Origin: a bacterium
Lineage (GTDB): Bacteria; Patescibacteriota; Saccharimonadia; Saccharimonadales; SZUA-47
Direction: 5' to 3'
NCBI GenBank assembly: GCA_030428125.1
Contig: JAUIBF010000002.1
Coordinates: 143,910 to 207,909 of the forward strand
Length of the DNA: 64,000 nt
Shown: piece after piece, positions 311-54,913 of the stretch
Position numbering within the stretch: the stretch's first letter is position 1
Layout of the letters: each line of letters starts with the position of its first letter
Translations under genes and position numbers: made by a program
Notes under the pieces: model-generated
The model's database searches: none
Seen by the model: only the letters and a program-made list of their open reading frames with translations
What the model was told of the DNA's origin: nothing

Positions 311-330
311 ATGAGTAAGTTAAAAATTAT

Positions 331-412
331 GAAAGGAAAAAGAGCAGACCGAGCGTCAAACTTGTTTTGCGCACGGCTCGATGAGAAAAAACCATCTGGT
401 TTTGTCTCATAG
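331..412 (+). promoter_or_regulatory. Copy A of a three-copy two-hairpin RNA element; 5' leader of rnj
   Basis: GGAAAAAGAGCAGAC..P1..CGATGAGAAAAAACC-ATCT-GGTTTTGTCTCA. Aligns with 12754-12828 and 53667-53739. P2 stem shows compensatory changes between copies. Confidence 0.5.
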
Positions 413-430
413 CTCAATAAGGAGAAATTA

Positions 431-2518
431 ATGGAAAAAAATAACAAAGGGAAAGGCAAGAACCAAAACTCTGGTTCAAAAAAGCCTAATTCCCAAAATA
501 AGAAAAAACAAGGTATTGAATCTAAGCCAAGACCTAAAACTACTGCACAAGCTCGCAGTGTTAGTCGAGGTGAAGCGATTCGTGCCCAAAAGCGAAGCGT
601 TGAAGACGCAACAAGATTGGTTAGTCAGTACCTAACTCCAACAGGGGATGACAATCCTAAGCGCGCTAACTTCATCGACAACAGCCCACGTCTAAAAATC
701 ATCGGTTTAGGTGGTATGGATGGTGGTGGCTCCAAGAACATGATGCTTTTGGAGTACATGAATGATGCTGTGATTGTGGACTGCGGGAACGACCTAGGTG
801 TTGATTTGCCGGGTATCAACTACGGTATTTGCGACACAACTTATCTAGAAAGCATAAAGCACAAGATTAAAGGTTACGTAATCACTCATGGTCACTTAGA
901 CCACATCGGTGGTTTGCCGCATATCGTGCCTAAATTCCCGGCACCAATTTATGGTAGCCGATTCACGATCGGGCGTGTTGAGGAGATCTTCCAGAACTTT
1001 GGGCTGCCAATGCCGCAAGGTTTCAAACTTGATACGGTGATAATGAACGAACACACTCACGAGCGACTTAAGCTCGGTGAATTTTTCGTCGAACTCGTTG
1101 CAGTTACGCACTCTATTCCTGGTTCGACAGTAGTTATTGTCGATACACCAGTTGGTAGAGTTGTGAACACGGGTGACTTCAGGCTAGACCCAAACCCTCT
1201 AGACCATGAAAAGACTGACACAGACAGATTGAAAGAGCTTGGAAAAGAAGGTGTTTTAGCGCTTCTTTCTGAGAGTACAACTACCGAGCGACCAGGTCGT
1301 ACTCCAAGCGAGAGCACAATCGAACAAAGTTTCATCGATATCATGGAACGTGCTCCAGGACGTATGTTCGTTGCGCTGTTCTCGACAAACGTTAACCGTG
1401 TACAGATGATAGTTAATGCAGCAGTTAAGCATAACCGTAAGATTGCTCTTGATGGGCGAAGCATGATGAGTACTCTCGAAATGGCAGTGCGAAACGGTTT
1501 TATGAAGATTCCTAAAGGAACCTTCATTCCTATTAATGCAGTGCCTAACATCAAAGACCAAGATGTCGTTGTTATGTGTACTGGTTCACAGGGTGAGCCG
1601 AATTCTGCATTGCAGAGAATGGCAGCAGGTCAGCACAAGCACATCAAACTTAAGGCTCAGGACACAGTTGTGCTATCAAGTACACCAATTCCTGAGTCAG
1701 GTAATGATTCACTTATCGGTTCTATGGTTGATAACTTGATGCGTATGGGTGTGCATGTTTATCGTCACGAAACCCGTGAACTAGACAACTGTGGTCCACT
1801 GCACGTATCTGGTCATGCCAGCGTTGATGAGTACAAAGACATGATTAACTACTTGCAGCCAAAGTTCTTTGTGCCAATTTACGGAAGTTATCGCTCAAAG
1901 CAGCGACATATTGAAATTGCCGTTGAAGAAGGGATTGCACGCAGAGATACATTGAACGCTGAAAACGGTCATGTGATTGCATTTACAAAAGACAAGATGG
2001 AAGTTATCGGTGAGGTGCCTGTTGGTACAGTTTTGGTAGACCAAACTGGCGCCATCGTGAACAACGTAGTTGTCAAAGATCGATTGATGCTTGCAGAAGA
2101 AGGTCTGGTTACAGTAATCCTGACAATCGATAAGAAGTCAGGTCAACTGATGACTAGCCCAGATATTATTTCTCGAGGATTCATTTACATGCGTGACTCT
2201 GAAGAACTTATGAATCTGTTTAGGACAGAGCTTAGACGTGCAGTAATGCAGCGCTACAAACGAGTGGACCTTGATAGGTTTAAAGCGGAACTTAAAGATT
2301 ACGTAACTCATTTCTTGTACGAGCAAACTCAGAGAAGCCCAATTGTGATTCCGGTTGTGAACATCATTAACGGTAAACCCTCTACAACTAAGCAGGGCGG
2401 TAAAGATGGTAAGAAGCAAGAGCCTGAGAAAACAGCTGATCAGATTGCTAAAGAACAGCAAGATAGATTTGCTGCGTTGCGTCAGCAGCTTCTAGGCCAA
2501 GACGCTCGCGTTGACTAA
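431..2518 (+). CDS. rnj: Ribonuclease J
   Basis: 695-aa ORF with metallo-beta-lactamase motif THGHLDHIGG, a beta-CASP-like middle and an RNase J C-terminal domain. AAGGAG lies upstream. N- and C-terminal extensions are Lys-rich. Confidence 0.9.
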   Translation: MEKNNKGKGKNQNSGSKKPNSQNKKKQGIESKPRPKTTAQARSVSRGEAIRAQKRSVEDATRLVSQYLTPTGDDNPKRANFIDNSPRLKIIGLGGMDGGGSKNMMLLEYMNDAVIVDCGNDLGVDLPGINYGICDTTYLESIKHKIKGYVITHGHLDHIGGLPHIVPKFPAPIYGSRFTIGRVEEIFQNFGLPMPQGFKLDTVIMNEHTHERLKLGEFFVELVAVTHSIPGSTVVIVDTPVGRVVNTGDFRLDPNPLDHEKTDTDRLKELGKEGVLALLSESTTTERPGRTPSESTIEQSFIDIMERAPGRMFVALFSTNVNRVQMIVNAAVKHNRKIALDGRSMMSTLEMAVRNGFMKIPKGTFIPINAVPNIKDQDVVVMCTGSQGEPNSALQRMAAGQHKHIKLKAQDTVVLSSTPIPESGNDSLIGSMVDNLMRMGVHVYRHETRELDNCGPLHVSGHASVDEYKDMINYLQPKFFVPIYGSYRSKQRHIEIAVEEGIARRDTLNAENGHVIAFTKDKMEVIGEVPVGTVLVDQTGAIVNNVVVKDRLMLAEEGLVTVILTIDKKSGQLMTSPDIISRGFIYMRDSEELMNLFRTELRRAVMQRYKRVDLDRFKAELKDYVTHFLYEQTQRSPIVIPVVNIINGKPSTTKQGGKDGKKQEPEKTADQIAKEQQDRFAALRQQLLGQDARVD

Positions 2519-6323: not shown

Positions 6324-6446
6324 TGTAGAATGAAAATGTGGGAACGACACGAGAACTTTAAATAACGAGGAAAGGAGGGTCTCAAGGGTACTTTTCTTAA
6401 AAGAAAAACCGTAGGTTTGTCTTTTGAAGCCCTTGGGCGTCGACAT

Positions 6447-6920: not shown

Positions 6921-7132
6921 ATAAATGGATATAGAAAGCCAACATCAACCAGGTCAAACAGTGGAAGGCATTACTAGCCCGGACGCAGTGTGGATGCCGA
7001 GCTTAATTGGCAAAGGCCCGGAGGTTGTGAGGGAATTAATAATCTTAAATGAAGACGTCTACCGTTTAAGCAACGGGTTAGGATTTCCTTTAAGTTGGTT
7101 GGACCTAGATTAATATTAGAAAGGATATAATT

Positions 7133-7336
7133 GTGGCGAAGATATTTAAGCACAAACATGATATTCCTTATTTTGACTATAAGGATTTCAAAACTTTGCA
7201 GCGATACGTTAACCAGTACGGTCAGATTGAGACTCGTAAGAAAACTGGTCTAACTGAAAGCAAGCAACGTCAGCTAGCAAAAGCTATCAAGCGAGCTAGA
7301 CACCTTGCATTGCTTCCATTTGTAAGCAGTAATTAG
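7133..7336 (+). CDS. rpsR: 30S ribosomal protein S18 (GTG start)
   Basis: [50 protein letters not shown] is the S18 signature. Confidence 0.9.
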
Positions 7337-8868: not shown

Positions 8869-9273
8869 ATGGAAGTGGCTGGAGTATTATTAATACAGGG
8901 TGACGAATATGTACTCCAACTGCGTGACAATATACCCACAATTTCAGAACCTGGACTAGTGGCTATTTGGGGTGGCAAAGTAGAAGAAAACGACAGTTCA
9001 CCACAAGAAGCCGCAGCTAGAGAATTGCTGGAGGAAACTGGTGTAGAAATCGATTCTAGTGAGCTAGTGCACCTAGAATCGTACGTTACTAGGGGTAAAA
9101 GTTCTAAAAACATCGGAAAGCCCGTTAAAGCACACATATATTACGTAGAGATTCCTGAGAATGTTACAGTTGAATGCCTAGAGGGCTTGGAATTAGTCAG
9201 GGTAAAAGACCTAAATGAAATACCCGAATCTTTGCGCTCTGAGTTCCTGCAAAAAAGCATAGAGATAGTATGA
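8869..9273 (+). CDS. NUDIX hydrolase
   Basis: Nudix box GGKVEENDSSPQEAAARELLEETG. ATG 8869 follows the efp stop, so it is preferred over 8836. Confidence 0.8.
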   Translation: MEVAGVLLIQGDEYVLQLRDNIPTISEPGLVAIWGGKVEENDSSPQEAAARELLEETGVEIDSSELVHLESYVTRGKSSKNIGKPVKAHIYYVEIPENVTVECLEGLELVRVKDLNEIPESLRSEFLQKSIEIV

Positions 9274-10025
9274 ATCGGCTAGACAAGGAGATATATAATC
9301 GTAAGCTTGTAACCAGTCGTTCACAAGCAGAGAATTATATTAAACTAGGCGTTGTTACGGTAAACGGAAAGACTGTAACTAAGCCCGGGTTTTTGGTTTC
9401 TGAAGATGACAACATCAAACTTGCTAGTGAACAGTACGTCTCGCGGGCGGCTCTAAAGCTAGCATCTATAGCAAAGCAGTTCAGATTAGATTTCAAAGAT
9501 AAAGTAGTTCTTGACGTTGGCAGTAGTACCGGTGGGTTCACCGATTATGCGCTACAGCACGGAGCAAAAAAAGTTATCGCTGTAGATGTCGGTAAAGATC
9601 AGCTACATCCAACTTTGCACGGTGATAAAAGGATAGAGTTGCACGAAAAAACTGATATTCGTGATTTCAAAACATCAGAGCAAATAGACATAATGGTAGC
9701 TGATGTTTCCTTCATATCACTTACAAACATCCTGCCAAGTCTTCAAGCACTTTCCAATAAAAATACAGAGCTAATAATGATGTGCAAGCCACAGTTCGAG
9801 GCTGGGAAAGACCAGGTTAACAAAGGCGTGATCAAGAATAGTGCTACCAGACGCAAAGTGCTTAAAGGTTTTGAAAACTGGCTTAATCAGAATGGTTTTG
9901 TTACCAAAGATAAAGCTGACTCGCAAGTTGCCGGGGCTAAAGGAAACGTCGAACGCTTCTACAAATTATCGACTTCGTCTCATGAGGGGAGAGTATCTCC
10001 CTTCATCGTGCGGCGCATAAAATAA
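9270..10025 (+). CDS. tlyA: TlyA-family rRNA 2'-O-methyltransferase
   Basis: N-terminal S4 domain (RLDKEIYNRKLVTSRSQAENYIKLG) and SAM motif VLDVGSSTGGFTD. Confidence 0.8.
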   Translation: MNRLDKEIYNRKLVTSRSQAENYIKLGVVTVNGKTVTKPGFLVSEDDNIKLASEQYVSRAALKLASIAKQFRLDFKDKVVLDVGSSTGGFTDYALQHGAKKVIAVDVGKDQLHPTLHGDKRIELHEKTDIRDFKTSEQIDIMVADVSFISLTNILPSLQALSNKNTELIMMCKPQFEAGKDQVNKGVIKNSATRRKVLKGFENWLNQNGFVTKDKADSQVAGAKGNVERFYKLSTSSHEGRVSPFIVRRIK

Positions 10026-10093
10026 ATTTGATGCTACGTCTACTCCCCTCAGATACAAAGGCAGATGTGAAATTTTGCAAACTGAGCGAAGCG

Positions 10094-10741
10094 TTAAAGA
10101 ATTGCTTCTAGAGCTGGGATATTACAAAGTGCTATTTTCCCATCCACGTTTTTAATAAGCCCTTTTTTGCGTAAAGTATTTAGCTCTCGAGAAGTAGTCT
10201 CTCTTGTAGCATTAACGGAGCTTGCAATATCAGTTTGTCTGAATGGAGCCATAATTATTTGATTACCGTCTCGCTCAGTTCCAAACCGGTTTGCAGTTAC
10301 TAGCAAGAAAGATACAATTCTTTCCCTGGCAGTTCGATAGCTTAGGGTGATTACTCGCTCTGAATGTAGCCGGTAGGCCTCAATAGCCATATCCAGAATT
10401 ATCGGGTTTACGTCAGGGTTTTTTTCCAAAAAGTCTAGATAATCACTCTTAGACACTCGCCACATTGAAGTTTCTTCCATTGCTTCATAGCTAGCTTGTC
10501 GATGCTCACCCGTGAACGCCCAAATGAGTGGAAACACGCTTCCTGACCCTCGGACTAACATTAGATTTTCTTCTCCATATTTAGTAATCGTATATGCTTT
10601 TACAAAACCCCATTCAATTAGAAAAACGCCACTAGGTTCGTCTTCGGATCTGATAATTACTTCGCCTTTTTTGTACTGCATTCTGGTGTGCGAGTAGAAA
10701 AACGCTCGGATTTTATCTCGTTGTTGGTTATGTGTTTTCAT
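10094..10741 (-). CDS. Crp/Fnr-family transcriptional regulator
   Basis: N-terminal cNMP-binding-like beta-roll and C-terminal HTH (RQTDIASSVNATRETTSRELNTLRKKGLI). Confidence 0.8.
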   Translation of the reverse strand: MKTHNQQRDKIRAFFYSHTRMQYKKGEVIIRSEDEPSGVFLIEWGFVKAYTITKYGEENLMLVRGSGSVFPLIWAFTGEHRQASYEAMEETSMWRVSKSDYLDFLEKNPDVNPIILDMAIEAYRLHSERVITLSYRTARERIVSFLLVTANRFGTERDGNQIIMAPFRQTDIASSVNATRETTSRELNTLRKKGLIKNVDGKIALCNIPALEAIL

Positions 10742-12345: not shown

Positions 12346-12720
12346 TTACTTTTTGCCAATCTTACCCATGTGAGTTTCATGGAATGAGTGTTTGTGCTTC
12401 AAACCAAATCCGAGAGCTCTATCTATGGAAATATGAAAGGTCCAGCAGTAGCCAATAAGGGCTGTCAAGTCATGACTGAAAACAATTCCGAACACGATTA
12501 ACAAAGTAGGCACAGTATAGTTGTGCATGAAATTGTAGGTGTAGGCGCCGATTTTAGTGTTATATAGATAGCCAATAGCCCCAACATCAAATGCCAAAAA
12601 GGTTATTAGTAGCCACCACAAACTGTATGGAGATTCGTACGTTAGAACTATCATCAGCGTTGCAAGTGCGATAGCTTCTAGCTTTAATTGGGCTATAAAA
12701 TTCCTAAAATCCTTAGACAT
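12346..12720 (-). CDS. Small integral membrane protein (DUF4260-like)
   Basis: 124 aa with 4 predicted TM segments. C-terminal HISIDRALGFGLK resembles DUF4260. Confidence 0.45.
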   Translation of the reverse strand: MSKDFRNFIAQLKLEAIALATLMIVLTYESPYSLWWLLITFLAFDVGAIGYLYNTKIGAYTYNFMHNYTVPTLLIVFGIVFSHDLTALIGYCWTFHISIDRALGFGLKHKHSFHETHMGKIGKK

Positions 12721-12753: not shown

Positions 12754-12828
12754 AAGGAAAAAGAGTAGCCAGCAGAGACGATTTATTCGGCTCTCCTGCG
12801 CGTTGAGAAAAAACGTAGTTTTGTCTCA
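12754..12828 (+). other. Copy B (orphan) of the three-copy two-hairpin element
   Basis: GGAAAAAGAGTAGCC..P1..CGTTGAGAAAAAAC-GTA-GTTTTGTCTCA. Reads on the + strand between two minus-strand genes. Confidence 0.45.
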
Positions 12829-12840
12829 AAAGCGTCAGCG

Positions 12841-13926
12841 TCAAACATTAAACTTAAACTCCACCACATCACCTTCTTTCATGATGTAGGTTTTGCCCTC
12901 AGTTCGGACTTTGCCTGCAGCTTTTGCAGACGATTCAGATCCTGCTTCAACTAAGTCTTCATAGTTCACGATTTGCGCAGCGATGAACCCACGCTCGAAG
13001 TCGCCATGAATAACCCCTGCTGCTTGTGGTGCAGTTGAGCCTTGTTTGATAGTCCAGGCTCTTACCTCTTTCTCTCCAGCTGTTAGATAACTTTGCAAGC
13101 CAAGTAGGTCGTATGCAGAATGAATAACCTTGTGTAGTCCTGGCTCAGATTGTCCATAGCTTTCGAGCATTTCTAGTCGGTCACGTTCGTCTAATCCACG
13201 CAACTCGTCTTCTAGTTTTGCGCTTACAAACACTACTTTGGCAGGAGCCACAAGCTCGGTGAGTTCCTTTTGTTTTTCTGTATCGGAAAGTTGTTCATCA
13301 TCCAGATTAAACAGATATAAAACCGGCTTAGCGCTCATTAATTGGAGGTCTGATAAATGCTCTTTGTATTCATCCAGTAGTTCAGGATTCTTCCACAATG
13401 GCTTGCCGTTCTCTAGTTGAGATTTAATTTTGTTCAGCAAGTCCGCAACAACTTTAAGCTTTGGGTTCGCTCTAGATTCTTTTTCTAATTTTGGCAATCG
13501 CTTATCGACGGTCTGTATATCAGCTAAAACTAGCTCTGTCAGGATAATATCAATGTCGTGAGCAGGATCTTTAGAGCTATCACTGCGGAGAACATCCGGA
13601 TTATCGAATGCTCGCACTACCTGGCAGATCGCGTTACAACTTCGAATATGACTCAAGAACTGATTACCCAAACCTTCGCCTTGAGATGCGCCTTCAACTA
13701 GTCCTGCAATATCTACAAAAGTCACAGTAGCCGGGATTGCTTTTTGAGAGTTATACATCACGGAAAGTTTAGCTAGTCGTTCGTCAGGGACCGGAACAAT
13801 TCCGGTATTGGGTTCTATCGTGGCAAAAGGGTAATTAGCAGCTAAAATACTGCTGTCTGTTAAGGCGTTGAACAGAGTAGACTTACCAACATTAGGTAGT
13901 CCCACAATTCCTATAGATAAACTCAT
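12841..13926 (-). CDS. ychF: Ribosome-binding ATPase YchF
   Basis: GIVGLPNVGKSTLFNALT P-loop and TGS-like C-terminus (...KEGDVVEFKFNV). Confidence 0.9.
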   Translation of the reverse strand: MSLSIGIVGLPNVGKSTLFNALTDSSILAANYPFATIEPNTGIVPVPDERLAKLSVMYNSQKAIPATVTFVDIAGLVEGASQGEGLGNQFLSHIRSCNAICQVVRAFDNPDVLRSDSSKDPAHDIDIILTELVLADIQTVDKRLPKLEKESRANPKLKVVADLLNKIKSQLENGKPLWKNPELLDEYKEHLSDLQLMSAKPVLYLFNLDDEQLSDTEKQKELTELVAPAKVVFVSAKLEDELRGLDERDRLEMLESYGQSEPGLHKVIHSAYDLLGLQSYLTAGEKEVRAWTIKQGSTAPQAAGVIHGDFERGFIAAQIVNYEDLVEAGSESSAKAAGKVRTEGKTYIMKEGDVVEFKFNV

Positions 13927-16193: not shown

Positions 16194-17156
16194 ATGGATT
16201 TGAGAGAAGTGGGACCACGCATAGCTCTTGTAGCTGGTTTAAGTGCTGCTACGGCTGGTTGTGCTGCACAACTTGAGTCAGAAGCACCTAAGCCCAACGA
16301 AGAAGCTACGCTTTTAGTGGAGCAGACGATAGCAGAAACTGCTGTACCGACAACTGTCGAGGTTACTGCCGTGCCAACCACAACCATTCCGGAAACTACA
16401 ACTAGCTTAGAATCTACAACAACCACCTCTACAACAACTAGCTCTACCACAAGTACTTCTACGACTACCTCCACCACAACCATTCCGGAAACTACAACTA
16501 CAACAGAGTACATTCCGACCTGGGAAGACGAACATTTGATATCTAAAGAAGCGTTAGTGCAGGGTAACAAAATTGCAGATCTTGTAGCTGTTAATCCTGA
16601 CGGTGAAGTTTTGGTAAACATACCAATGTTTGCGGTAATGGATTTGAACAACAGAGAGGTAACGATACCACAACTGGAAAGAGGCGCGATACTTGAAGTA
16701 GCGGACCCAGATATCAATCCAGATATGATAGGACTAGATAACGGTACTCCAGAAATGAGTTTGCCAGGTGATCCTGGTGTATCAATTAGTTTTGGGCATA
16801 GGATGACTAGGATTACTCCAGATTTCGACGGTGATCAATCCAACGGTAACGAAGGTGCTATACAAAGGGTCTATGAACGAATTGATGAGCTACTCCCTGG
16901 TGCTGTCTTGACTTTACATCTTACAGAAGAAGCTGGCGGCAAGACCTTGACATACGAACTGCACAGCCTTAGGGAGCTAAAAAATTTTGAACTGGATGGT
17001 GGTGGCACTCTTGCTCAAACTGCATATGATTTAAGAGCAGGGGTGGGTATAGAAAATATAGATGAGTCTAGCTCGGTTTTAAGCTTAGTTGCTTGTAGCC
17101 CAAAGCGAAGCACAAGAGATAGAATCGTCGCTGATTTCATTCTAGTACAAAATTAG
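16194..17156 (+). CDS. Sortase-family transpeptidase (class E/F-like) with lipoprotein-type signal and Thr/Ser-rich stalk
   Basis: The three sortase motifs occur in order: FGHR, ...ELLPGAVLTLHL...TYELHSL, and LSLVACSPKRSTRDRIVADF (TLxTC-like Cys, then Arg). N-terminus is LSAATAGC. Confidence 0.55.
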   Translation: MDLREVGPRIALVAGLSAATAGCAAQLESEAPKPNEEATLLVEQTIAETAVPTTVEVTAVPTTTIPETTTSLESTTTTSTTTSSTTSTSTTTSTTTIPETTTTTEYIPTWEDEHLISKEALVQGNKIADLVAVNPDGEVLVNIPMFAVMDLNNREVTIPQLERGAILEVADPDINPDMIGLDNGTPEMSLPGDPGVSISFGHRMTRITPDFDGDQSNGNEGAIQRVYERIDELLPGAVLTLHLTEEAGGKTLTYELHSLRELKNFELDGGGTLAQTAYDLRAGVGIENIDESSSVLSLVACSPKRSTRDRIVADFILVQN

Positions 17157-17272: not shown

Positions 17273-18049
17273 GTGGCAGATCCAATGGAAGCATCAGTAA
17301 CTCCGGTAAGCCAAACACCGGAACATAGAGGTCATTTTTATACAAGAGTAGTTGGGACACTCGCAGCAGCAACTTTAGGTATTGCCGGTGTTGCAGCCGT
17401 CAACGGTCAAAGAGGAGGTGCTGAAGAAGCAGCTTCACAGGAGACTGCTGATTTTTTCGCAGATATCGAAGCAATATGTGTTGACGGTAGCCCTATATTG
17501 TCCATAGACGTGACTCCAGATTCTATGAACTACCAAGTCGATATCAATGGCCAATTAGTCTATGTGTCTGACTTCTTTGAAAATGACCATGAGCTTCCGA
17601 TTGAGGAAGGTGATTTATGGCGCTTTTACAATGGTTCAATCGATAAATCAGGTGTGGTATCTGAAGATACTTGTCCAGATCCTACCACCACAACCATGGA
17701 ACCAACGACTACGACAACCGAAGCAGCTACCACAACTACTGAAGCAGCCACTACGACTACCGAAGCTTCTACTACAACTACCGAACCAACGACTACGACA
17801 ACAGAAGCTGTTACCACAACCACTGAAGCAGCCACTACGACTACCGAAGCTTCTACTACAACTACCGAACCAACGACTACGACAACAGAAGCTGTTACCA
17901 CAACCACTGAAGCAGCCACCACCACAACTACTGAAGCAGCCACTACGACTACCGAAGCTACCACAACAACCACAGCTGCCCCGACAACTACGGTAGCTCC
18001 TACTACAACTGCAACACCTAACACAGTTACACCACCACAAACGCCGTAA
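17273..18049 (+). CDS. Membrane-anchored surface protein with Thr-rich tandem repeats
   Basis: N-terminal TM (VVGTLAAATLGIAGVAAV), a globular ~90 aa, then (TTTTEAx)n repeats to the C-terminus. Confidence 0.6.
   Translation: MADPMEASVTPVSQTPEHRGHFYTRVVGTLAAATLGIAGVAAVNGQRGGAEEAASQETADFFADIEAICVDGSPILSIDVTPDSMNYQVDINGQLVYVSDFFENDHELPIEEGDLWRFYNGSIDKSGVVSEDTCPDPTTTTMEPTTTTTEAATTTTEAATTTTEASTTTTEPTTTTTEAVTTTTEAATTTTEASTTTTEPTTTTTEAVTTTTEAATTTTTEAATTTTEATTTTTAAPTTTVAPTTTATPNTVTPPQTP
17699..17960. repeat. Intragenic tandem repeat, 84-bp unit (about 3 copies; 21-bp sub-period)
   Basis: GAACCAACGACTACGACAAC... recurs at 17699, 17783 and 17867. Units 2 and 3 are identical over about 53 nt. Confidence 0.85.
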
Positions 18050-53457: not shown

Positions 53458-53666
53458 AGGGCATAGCAGTTATACTTATATCTGCAGACTAGAGCTATCA
53501 TTATGATTTTTCTGAATAACTAATCATAGGGTTCGATCTCCGCATATAATCCGTGGATTACATGCTTATCTTACCCACCTAGCTTTTGCGCAGGTAAATC
53601 CAAGGTAGCTCTTTCCAGTCTGCATACAAAGTAATTATAATAATGAATGAAATTGAATATTGTTTT

Positions 53667-53739
53667 CGGAAAGAGCAGACAGAACAGACGATCTATTCGG
53701 CTGTCCTGCTCGATGAGAAAACCCGAAGGGTTGTCTCAT
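53667..53739 (+). promoter_or_regulatory. Copy C of the three-copy two-hairpin RNA element; 5' leader of the ASCH-RNase H gene
   Basis: CGGAAAGAGCAGACAG..P1..CTGTCCTGCTCGATGAGAAAACCC-GAA-GGGTTGTCTCA. Ends 2 nt before the GTG start. Confidence 0.5.
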
Positions 53740-53741
53740 AA

Positions 53742-54557
53742 GTGAAACAATTAAAATTTGAACATCAATTCGCTTCAGATATAAAACAAGGTGAAAAAAC
53801 TGCCACATTTCGTGTCAATGACGACAAAGACATTAAGCCAGGGGATATTGTTGAGCTTGTAGATAAAGTTTCACACGATTATCCGTCAACTTGGGAAATA
53901 CCAGGTGAGCTTGAAATAACAGAGGTAAGTCAAGTATCAATTGGCAACTTAAATAAGGAACATATGCTGCGAGCAGAGTCATTTGATGACGTCGATCAAA
54001 TGGTGCAGACATTCCGACGCTTTTATGGCGAACACGTCAGCAATGAAACTTTGGTTAACGTTTTAAACTTTACATATCGACCATTTGAAGTACCCAAGAA
54101 GTTCTTAGAGCAGGTAACAACAGACGATCAAATTCCACAAAAAGTTCAGCTGTTTGCAGATGGTGGATCAAGAGGAAATCCTGGTCCTTCAGCTTTGGGT
54201 TTTGTAGTTTTGGACGAGGACAATAACTTACTACATCAGGATAACAAGTACCTGGGGTTAACAACTAACAACCAGGCAGAATACCACGCAGTTCTAGCAG
54301 GAATGGAGTGGTGCCTGTCTAAAAATGTGCGAGAGATAAAAATATTTCTTGATAGCATGCTGGTTGTAAATCAGATGAACGGTAAGTTTAAAGTCAAAAA
54401 CCGAGACCTTTGGACCTTATACGAATCGGCCAAAGATCTAAGTAAAAAGTTTCGCAAAGCAACAGTTACTCATGTGCCTAGAGAAATGAATAAACTAGCC
54501 GACAAAGAAGTTAACAAAGCCCTGGATGCCATAAAGGGGGCCGATATTGTACAATAG
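53742..54557 (+). CDS. ASCH domain - ribonuclease HI fusion protein (GTG start)
   Basis: N-terminal ASCH-like segment (FASDIKQGEKTATFR). C-terminal RNase H DEDD residues in LFADGGSRGNPGP, NNQAEYHAV, FLDSMLVVNQ, MNKLADKE. Confidence 0.75.
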   Translation: MKQLKFEHQFASDIKQGEKTATFRVNDDKDIKPGDIVELVDKVSHDYPSTWEIPGELEITEVSQVSIGNLNKEHMLRAESFDDVDQMVQTFRRFYGEHVSNETLVNVLNFTYRPFEVPKKFLEQVTTDDQIPQKVQLFADGGSRGNPGPSALGFVVLDEDNNLLHQDNKYLGLTTNNQAEYHAVLAGMEWCLSKNVREIKIFLDSMLVVNQMNGKFKVKNRDLWTLYESAKDLSKKFRKATVTHVPREMNKLADKEVNKALDAIKGADIVQ

Positions 54558-54565
54558 AGTTGTCC

Positions 54566-54906
54566 TAGTCATACACGGTCAATCGCCAAGTTTACTTGGA
54601 GGAAAGTCCGGGCAGCATCGGTCAAGACAGTTGCTAACGGCAACCGAGAGTAATCTCAGGGAAAGTGCCACAGAAACGAAACACCCAATTTTCGGGGATA
54701 GATGAAAAGAGTGGGGTAAGAGCCCACAACTTCTCACGGTGACGTGGGAGGGTAGGTAAACCCTGTCTGCTGCAAGGAGGTAATTTATCGCTTACTAGCG
54801 ATCCGCTGACCACTGTTTGCCGCTTAAATCCGCTCGAACTGCTGAGCAATCAGTAGTCTAGATAGATGATTGACGATAACAGAACCCGGCTTATAGTGCA
54901 TGATTT
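54566..54906 (+). ncRNA. rnpB: RNase P RNA, bacterial type A
   Basis: Universally conserved GGAGGAAAGTCCGGGC (P4 5' strand) and ACAGAACCCGGCTTA (P4 3' strand). P1 pairing is TCATACAC/GTGCATGA. Ends are approximate. Confidence 0.85.
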
Positions 54907-54913
54907 GGGCAAT

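Follow-up and report, generated by a model that had tools for sequence, protein, structure and literature searches.

A multi-copy, two-hairpin structured element in transcribed spacers of Saccharibacteria

The two-hairpin element and its structure

The stretch analyzed here, called the window, comprises 64,000 nucleotides of contig JAUIBF010000002.1 (assembly GCA_030428125.1, Saccharimonadales), and three segments of its + strand, named copies A, B and C, are alike in sequence and fold. Copy A precedes rnj, the gene of RNase J, copy C precedes the gene of an ASCH-RNase H fusion, and copy B lies between the genes of a DUF4260 protein and of YchF, being antisense to both. The three segments and the gene neighbours of copies A and C had been pointed out in a preliminary description of the window and are found again here, the segments with 74.7-78.5 bits (E about 1e-20) under a covariance model. 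Their alignment has a mean column identity of 72%, and the pattern TGAGAAAAN{6,16}TTGTCTCA, written for the second hairpin, matches the window three times, always on the + strand, where 0.00 matches are expected (100 shuffles). Two more, diverged copies (D and E) are detected in the window by the covariance model. The segments A-C are members of a family of small, structured, non-coding interspersed elements that spans the Saccharibacteria; the family is multi-copy, occupies transcribed spacers, and is gained, lost and decaying between close relatives.

The family was collected by two scans, both biased by their patterns, so that all counts are lower bounds; many of the loci, given below with L numbers, come from metagenome-assembled genomes, and their genes are simple open reading frame (ORF) and ARAGORN calls. 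The genome scan, run on one genome per species with a pattern holding only the second hairpin and the junction before it, gave at least 119 stretches with 129 copies in about 93 assemblies, and 128 of these 129 copies differ in sequence. The copy-bearing assemblies listed are almost all labelled Saccharibacteria, Saccharimonadia or Saccharimonadales, and the few other taxon labels look like mis-binned contigs. An independent metagenome scan, anchored on the other half of the element (the 5' tail and the base of the first hairpin), added at least about 80 further recognizable copies. The viral contigs of IMG/VR hold no copies; a looser pattern matched them twice, both times by chance inside a coding region, and a phage origin was rejected. 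Regarding known RNA families, Rfam 15 at the gathering cut-off returned only the RNase P RNA and five tRNAs over the whole window, and E-value scans over copies A and C returned only matches with E of at least 0.8, far under the gathering scores. No Rfam family was thus found at any copy, in line with the earlier remark that the element fits no known class, and literature searches for a motif, repeat or miniature inverted-repeat transposable element (MITE) from Saccharibacteria or other members of the candidate phyla radiation (CPR) found no specific description. The family is apparently undescribed.

Each of the copies A-C folds into two adjacent hairpins (z-scores -2.2 to -2.9), and all share a purine-rich 5' tail, a hairpin P1, a single G and a hairpin P2. 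The apical P2 pairs, AAAACC/GGTTTT in copy A, AAAAC/GTTTT in copy B and AACCC/GGGTT in copy C, are as first described. Across the family, the core has ~75 nt and the inserted unit about 85-105 nt, and the consensus consists of (A)GGGAAAAGAGCA, P1, G, P2 and an optional mini-hairpin, GGC-GAA-GCC or GCC-GGA-GGC. The segment GGGAAAAGAGCA is an almost invariant single-stranded tail, with its G and A positions conserved at 96-99% in an alignment of 114 copies, although it lies outside the genome-scan pattern. A base of GAGC/GCTC had been proposed for P1; it gives way to a register in which a G-C pair and a C-G (or A-U) pair are followed by a bulged C, by CCG/CGG and by a conserved position without Watson-Crick pairing, the apex varying freely, and in the second pair of this register the change of C to A is matched by G to T in 5/5 cases. 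P2 has 13 bp, including one extra closing pair, A-U or U-A, that covaries (114 vs 8; 99 vs 11 in a second alignment). The A·G mismatch and the base of P2, both called invariant before, vary in the metagenome sample, which is unbiased for P2: some copies have G-C or A-U in place of the mismatch, and the helix is kept with the bases GAGG/CCUC, GAGAG/CUCUC (where A·G becomes G-C) and, seven times, with a G·U pair in UCUUA.

The claim that the compensatory changes reflect a genuine structured element is upheld by covariation beyond shuffled and slid controls. In an alignment made by MAFFT only, compensatory changes affect 13 of the 23 predicted pairs, while in the model-guided alignment of 114 copies, which was fitted to the model, 94.2% of the cells are paired and double changes occur in 18 of 23 pairs (349 cells); none of 500 shuffles reaches the observed value, and the slid controls give 0.04-0.11 against 0.355. 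Regarding the strand, the + strand is shown to be the folded one: it has 59 G·U against 22 A·C, a balance that favours it while the minus strand is more stable by 1.4 kcal/mol of folding energy.

Both hairpin apices accept inserts of 15-100 nt. Expanded relatives with 50-100 extra nt nested in P2 are present in the metagenome sample (L145, L148, L160, L170, L187, L213 and L215, also L151, L185 and L174); they keep the tail, P1 and the GCGCGAT junction, their extra segments contain ...CTATATGCAGAAYCRGAG... and ...GAAGCTATAT..., and two of them precede tRNA genes. They may form a larger sub-class with extra helices. A three-way junction arises in L016, L064 and L095 from a second hairpin inserted at the apex of P1 (GGGAAAAGAGCAGAGCCGG-hairpin-hairpin-AAGGCTCG).

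As for common signals, an intrinsic terminator was rejected, as P2 on the + strand is followed by UUAG, UAAG or UUAC and a terminator scan over copy A was negative; on the reverse strand, P1 is followed by UCUUUUCC, by inspection borderline as a terminator U tract. No sigma-70 promoter was found inside or at copy A. A helix that closes the 5' flank onto the 3' linker into an RNase III-type stem was also rejected, since actual pairs of flank and linker did not exceed permuted ones (p=0.55). Read in reverse complement, the tail (CUGCUCUUUUCCC) resembles what is taken here to be the rrn boxA, UGCUCUUUAACAA, and the tail form GAAAAGAG is one mismatch away from what is presumably an extended Shine-Dalgarno (SD) sequence, GAAAGGAG; both likenesses were noticed post hoc.

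Genomic placement and small ORFs

The element is mostly found directly before tRNA, rRNA and highly expressed protein genes. Among the listed genome-scan copies, 33 of 129 end 4-13 nt (median 9) before a tRNA gene of the same strand, covering 14 tRNA identities, and the metagenome replicate has 24 of its 80 listed copies before a tRNA, at 4-18 nt. The tRNA loci have extended -10 promoters (TGCTATAAT-like) upstream of the element, making it part of the pre-tRNA leader. In the flanks of such copies (e.g., L010, L052, L117, L112 and L108), the TGCTATAAT promoters recur together with a CCTCTGTT / CCCCTGTT motif just before or after the -10 box, and between promoter and element, L010 and L117 carry a segment, CTGCTCTTT, complementary to the element tail.

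Rfam annotation of 18 further loci placed copies at rRNA genes as well, 11 nt before 5S rRNA (L070, L119), 11 nt before 16S rRNA (L060) and about 150 nt before 23S rRNA (L103). Moreover, a 147-nt insert holding the element occupies a hairpin loop of the 23S rRNA, near position 283 of the large subunit (LSU) model, at the same site in L103, L113 and L115, and is enclosed by a covarying helix extension with the flanks CTAGGCA/TGCCTAG. The 23S gene of L103 (1500-1640, ~1580-1640) has further inserts relative to the Rfam LSU model, of about 100 nt at ~312 and of 54 nt at ~371.

Before protein genes, the distance from the copy end to a same-strand ORF start is 3-42 nt (median 20) for 42 listed genome-scan copies and 14-32 nt for 13 listed copies of the metagenome sample. 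The downstream ORFs encode the ribosomal proteins S17 (three times), S7, L2, L4, L14, L16, L13, S9, L22, S3 and S14, besides SSB (three times), DnaK, EF-Tu/G, EF-Ts, GroEL, RpoC, ATP synthase gamma, AlaRS, RNase III, RecJ and FtsK. The preliminary description had set a functional RNA apart from a MITE- or REP-like element met at random genomic contexts (REP, repetitive extragenic palindrome); the copies do occur in many contexts, but these are far from random.

The downstream gene is co-oriented with the element in 92 listed copies against 33 (p=1.3e-7), about 25% of the listed intact copies are antisense to local genes, and 16 listed copies lie between two antisense genes, as copy B does. Most coding sequence is on the element's strand in 67 of 109 loci (61%), with a positive GC skew in 69 of 109. 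With this 61%, a lock of orientation to replication or to the gene strand of the whole locus was rejected; the orientation follows the immediate neighbour more.

Small ORFs are a further feature of the copies before protein genes. Of the copies just upstream of a same-strand ORF, 29/41 are spanned by a small ORF that runs without a stop across the element and starts at most 45 nt upstream, usually at the relic start codon of a duplicated junction, and in 22/41 this through-ORF stops between -8 and +3 nt relative to the true start codon; as controls, any through-ORF is present in 7/32 tRNA-linked and 14/54 other copies. By analogy with the mycobacterial interspersed repetitive units (MIRUs) discussed below, the through-ORFs are read here as a sign of selection that would keep translational coupling across the insert. 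At copy A, the upstream ORF (uORF) of 16 codons that had been described is present, opening at the ATG 381 inside the element and ending in TAATG on the rnj start. Such an internal-ATG uORF ends at the downstream start in 8/41 gene-proximal copies only, with no SD sequence before it, and its coupling at copy A is probably incidental because the arrangement is so restricted. The copy A counterpart of the through-ORFs in intercistronic copies is instead a second small ORF, which is not coupled to rnj (Table 1).

Turnover of the copies and other features of the window

Contigs of relatives, fetched through their RNase J homologues (L001-L003), show how the copies are gained and lost. With RNase J identities of 93%, 90% and 85%, these relatives keep the UDG-rnj order with gaps of only 8, 28 and 33 nt, where the window has 120 nt, thus copy A is an insertion that they lack, and would be a lineage-specific insertion before rnj rather than a conserved RNase J regulator. 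At the copy B site, the DUF4260 and YchF genes of L003 overlap without an insert, and copy E is also an insertion relative to L003. At the site of the decayed copy D, L003 has an intact copy upstream of ssb (72.7 bits), and the L003 copies before ftsK and rpsR have no counterpart at the matching window sites. Orthologous copies occupy the copy C site in L125/L126 and L129, none being present in L127/L128, and decay in place is also seen in the L129 copy.

For 22/122 copies, against about 1 expected, the flanks carry direct repeats that surpass the 99th percentile obtained with permuted flank pairs. These repeats have 15-88 nt, range from perfect (50, 48, 44, 26 and 24 nt) to about 75% identical, end 0-13 nt before the tail on the upstream side, and begin 4-18 nt past P2 on the downstream side. 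Regarding their content, they comprise the SD sequence, the stop/start overlap and the first codons of the adjacent gene in L057, L104, L028 and L051, and the last 50 nt of the upstream gene in L042 and L050. The latter two (L042:5357-5434 and L050:5488-5564) have the element at the same site in two species, surrounded by a perfect 48-50-nt duplication of the 3' end of the upstream gene, and in L050 the next 15 nt of both repeats encode E-K-L-stop with synonymous differences. Copy B is flanked by a diverged TTAGACAT / TCAAACAT duplication of the stop/start junction, and only about 6-9 nt of flanking repeat are recognizable at the sites of copies A and B. The inserts bounded by perfect direct repeats have no terminal inverted repeats and no poly-A-like 3' end.

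The coordinates are collected in Table 1. Two nucleotides (AA, 53740-53741) separate the end of copy C from the GTG start of the ASCH-RNase H gene, and the RNase P RNA gene (bacterial class A, 230 bits) follows 10 nt past the stop of that gene on the same strand, so that copy C, the RNase H-type gene and the RNase P RNA make up one compact unit. Upstream, in the spacer between an M50-peptidase gene and the ASCH-RNase H gene, a block of ~125 nt (TGATTTTTCTGAATAACTAATCATAGGGTTCGATCTCC...GCAGGTAAATCCAAGGTAGCTCT) is conserved in four genomes and is also present in L128, which is without the two-hairpin element; no tRNA, tmRNA or Rfam family matched it, and it may be an unannotated non-coding RNA or small gene on either strand. 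The ssb-rpsR spacer is filled by a 62-codon ORF, in the place of which L003 carries a two-hairpin copy. Another ORF, with thirteen tandem 21-nt units of the ACTAC(G/A)AC(T/A)ACCGAA... type, looks like the gene of a Thr/Pro-rich repeat protein; related units lie outside it, at 16377-16504.

Table 1. Positions of the element copies, their parts and nearby features in the window
Feature	Position	Strand	Description
Copy A, whole	333-413	+	between UDG-family gene (ends 310) and rnj (starts 431); 75.8 bits, E=3e-20
Copy A, 5' tail	333-346	+	AAGGAAAAAGAGCA; single-stranded, nearly invariant family-wide (114-copy alignment)
Copy A, P1	347-379	+	G347-C379, A348-U378, bulged C377, then CCG/CGG, variable apex; covariation
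Copy A, P2	381-410	+	A381-U410 through C393-G398; A387·G404 mismatch; loop AUCU
uORF in copy A	381-431	+	MRKNHLVLSHSSIRRN, then stop (TAA 429-431), which overlaps the rnj ATG at 431; by translation
Second small ORF across copy A	329-412	+	MKGKRADRASNLFCARLDEKKPSGFVS, then stop just past P2
rnj (RNase J)	431-2518	+
Copy D, decayed	6358-6428	+	upstream of ssb; P1 deleted; P2 base AAAGA/UCUUU; 25.5 bits, E=1.4e-5
62-codon ORF	6925-7113		ssb-rpsR spacer
rpsR	7133-7336		GTG start
FtsJ-like gene	9270-10025	+	convergent with the Crp-like gene around copy E
Copy E, diverged	9979-10054	-	upper P2 stem changed to GGAGA/UCUCC; 27.6 bits, E=3.5e-6
Crp-like gene	10094-10741	-
DUF4260 gene	12346-12720	-
Copy B	12754-12832	+	tail 12754-12767, P1 12768-12801, P2 12803-12829; 78.5 bits
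YchF gene	12841-13926	-
Repeat-protein ORF	17273-18049		tandem units at 17655-18032
Conserved spacer block	53500-53625
Copy C	53664-53742	+	tail 53664-53677, P1 53678-53711, P2 53713-53739; 74.7 bits
ASCH-RNase H fusion gene	53742-54557	+	GTG start at 53742
RNase P RNA gene	54567-54909	+

Comparison with known systems and rival explanations

The element resembles intervening sequences (IVSs), REP elements and MITEs, and MIRUs in different respects and fails the defining tests of each: inverted ends, a duplication of short, fixed length and a GTAG/REP head are all missing, and rRNA is not its only location. The 23S IVSs of Salmonella, Coxiella and Leptospira are likewise short (about 100-150 nt) structured inserts at the tip of a 23S hairpin, without an ORF, sporadic among lineages and presumably removed or tolerated at the RNA level, and the 147-nt insert with its flanking helix extension in L103, L113 and L115 has this form; the element differs by its dozens of copies outside rRNA, in tRNA, 5S and 16S leaders and in mRNA spacers. 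Classical IVSs lie in helices 9, 25 and 45 and are cut out by RNase III without religation, which leaves the 23S rRNA in fragments; the 23S site of the element is at none of these helices. Among the rRNA inserts of Saccharibacteria, 64/66 are short, without an intron or homing endonuclease, and have been left uncharacterised (PMC11270868); the element provides one recurrent 23S example of these, in three genomes.

Compared to small repeats such as REP and the bacterial interspersed mosaic elements (BIMEs), ERIC, Correia (CREE), RUP/BOX and MITEs, the element is similar in having about 100 nt, in being non-coding, hairpin-forming and multi-copy, and in lying at intergenic or intercistronic transcribed sites in both orientations, with presence or absence differing between relatives. 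It differs in lacking terminal inverted repeats, in its variable duplications of 15-88 nt instead of a fixed one of 2-10 bp, in a core kept across a class or phylum rather than a genus, in its RNA-type covariation, and in standing tight against the 5' ends of stable RNAs. Membership in REP/BIME was rejected, with no GTAG head present and an architecture unlike the 20-40-nt imperfect palindrome, and so was an IS200/IS605-derived PATE, with long duplications, variable flanks and P1 and P2 unlike in sequence. The only precedent found for the long, variable direct repeats is in IS1549 and IS1634 (IS1634 family), where they have 8-514 bp and no mechanistic model (PMC2266710); those elements are autonomous, with 1.5-2 kb, a DDE transposase and inverted ends, and neither such a gene nor such ends were found for the element in the loci.

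In terms of coupling, the closest likeness is to the MIRUs. These are tandem minisatellite units without a conserved two-hairpin fold and unlinked to tRNA or rRNA genes, sharing with the element the small ORF that spans the junction (22/41 copies). MIRUs, described in 1997 by Supply et al., are said to lie between the genes of polycistronic operons, with a small ORF that overlaps the flanking stop and start codons so that coupling is kept. Two functional analogies also deserve mention, namely the HK022 put RNA, reportedly a cis-acting transcript segment of about 70 nt with two stem-loops joined by a single nucleotide, as P1 and P2 are, and the intercistronic RNase III sites of phage T7, reportedly a repeated, conserved, structured site between highly expressed cistrons; they are analogies and not memberships, with no sequence similarity and with a quarter of the element copies antisense. 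Known self-cleaving ribozymes (hammerhead, twister, pistol, hatchet and HDV-like) gave no Rfam hit up to E 10, and by inspection GAUGAG resembles, without being equal to, the CUGAUGA core of the hammerhead, with no GAAA after the stem.

The best reading, towards which the balance of evidence tips slightly, is that of a mobile, transcribed, IVS/MITE-like structured spacer. It would spread through insertion events, each leaving a staggered duplication of about 15-90 nt of the target; where the duplication spans a gene junction, the insert would land at overlapping stop and start codons with both genes staying whole, and this may be the only way to insert between overlapping genes. After insertion, the element would be carried as a largely neutral RNA spacer, which in stable-RNA precursors would be removed with the leader or persist as an IVS-like insert, and which in coupled operons would be translated through as a mini-ORF of 30-40 codons, from the duplicated start codon to the true one, preserving translational coupling. 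Its tolerance would thus come from its removal together with leaders or from ribosomes reading through it.

Several observations weigh against this mobile spacer. The consensus ends AGGGAAAAGAGCAG and GGTTTGTCTCAT are not inverted copies as in a MITE, no 5'-truncated copies were found, and the loci examined showed no partner such as a transposase or reverse transcriptase. The tRNA-linked copies are without flanking duplication, and the repeats of L042 and L050 suggest gene conversion between repeats or repeated targeting. Some sites are common to diverged genomes (ASCH-RNase H, ssb, tRNA-His and the 23S insert), genomes ranging from 40 to 64% G+C have nearly the same tail and junction nucleotides, and this near-invariance, together with the tight 4-13-nt spacing, fits a host RNA function at least as well. 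The model-guided alignment, in addition, leans towards its own model.

Such a function is at the centre of a possible but doubtful alternative, which overlaps with the mobile spacer, in which a host-beneficial, cis-acting RNA module has spread through the genome as a 5'-end processing signal (an endonuclease site or self-cleaving ribozyme), a 5' stabilizer against RNase J or a put-like processivity element. The position just before mature tRNA, 5S and 16S 5' ends and upstream of translation-apparatus genes, inside the leader and downstream of the extended -10 promoters, would be expected of it, as would the sense bias, the excess of G·U over A·C on the + strand, the synteny of some copies across diverged genomes, and the conserved nucleotides clustered in the tail and the P1/P2 junction with variable, expandable apices, which is typical of functional RNA cores; the single nucleotide that reportedly separates the hairpins of put is a further parallel. 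On the other hand, a quarter of the intact copies are antisense to local genes, close relatives do without copies A and B with no visible replacement, copy D and the L129 copy decay in place, and the intercistronic copies are arranged for read-through translation, which would melt the structure. RNase P, the RNA of which is encoded in the window, makes tRNA 5' ends regardless, and neither a continuous duplex of ~22 bp for RNase III nor a family-wide closing helix is present. The same clustering of conserved nucleotides, expandable apices and 4-13-nt spacing is compatible with a bolder and rather unlikely proposal, that the element is a new class of functional RNA or an RNA-structured, non-autonomous retroposon, a bacterial counterpart of the short interspersed nuclear elements ('SINE'). 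As a ribozyme or endonuclease cassette, it would fix the 5' end of each tRNA, 5S or 16S rRNA and highly expressed cistron, besides fragmenting the 23S rRNA; as a 'SINE', it would enter genes under high transcription at their 5' edges and duplicate long, variable stretches of the target.

A signal acting at the DNA level seems improbable, either as a single-stranded DNA hairpin pair for an HUH or tyrosine enzyme (IS200/IS605-PATE-like or attC-like) or as a REP-like site for nucleoid proteins, gyrase or a replication protein. Both orientations relative to genes, the asymmetric ends, each with a subterminal imperfect hairpin, and the slightly better fold of the minus strand under RNA parameters would agree with it, and G·T is the best-tolerated mismatch of DNA hairpins too, making the G·U bias compatible with single-stranded DNA; but IS200/IS605-type elements make no target duplication and have a fixed tetranucleotide, where long duplications and variable flanks are found here, no REP-like GTAG motif is present, the orientation is unlocked from the locus-wide gene strand, and the sense bias and leader position point to transcription. 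The earlier proposal of a shared post-transcriptional control of RNase genes (rnj and ASCH-RNase H), with the copy A uORF translationally coupled to rnj, is now very hard to sustain. Copies A and C do precede these two genes, the uORF exists, PNPase (L001, L002) and one RNase III gene also have copies before them, and the ASCH-RNase H site is common to the window, L125 and L129. Copies before RNase genes recall autoregulatory leaders, namely the rne 5' untranslated region and the RNase III hairpin of the pnp leader. However, a conserved gene-specific leader was rejected, with the rnj sites of L001-L003 empty and the ASCH-RNase H site only partly shared; copy B has no sense-strand partner; the internal-ATG uORF is rarely coupled and lacks an SD sequence; and, different from the rne and pnp autoregulatory leaders, the element precedes many unrelated genes. 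An association with one gene class was likewise rejected, as the partners include tRNAs, 5S, 16S and 23S rRNA, ribosomal proteins, ssb, dnaK, tuf, rpoC and ftsK, with RNase genes a small minority and only incidental. Least credible of all is a small protein-coding gene, in which the through-ORF would specify a functional peptide of 30-40 amino acids. The frequency of open through-ORFs and the 22 that end at the next start codon speak for it, but indel lengths are not divisible by three, the 5' and 3' halves stand in different frames in different copies, the tRNA-linked and antisense copies are mostly without a start codon, and the stems covary as RNA pairs. The through-ORF is therefore not regarded as a peptide gene, and a protein-coding origin was rejected.

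The genomes of Saccharibacteria and other CPR bacteria are very small and tightly packed, and culturing of these organisms is only beginning. In these genomes, the element is abundant and class-wide, with no Rfam model or published description found, which is relevant to annotation, as about a quarter to a third of the sampled copies directly precede a tRNA gene, and it can serve as a marker for strain-level polymorphism in metagenomes. For genome evolution, it offers a concrete case of an insert that invades overlapping stop/start junctions, where long target duplications and a mini-ORF read through by ribosomes keep both genes intact. If the element acts on RNA, a role in processing or in modifying the polymerase would make it a new class of RNA in control of how stable RNAs mature in a major uncultured lineage.

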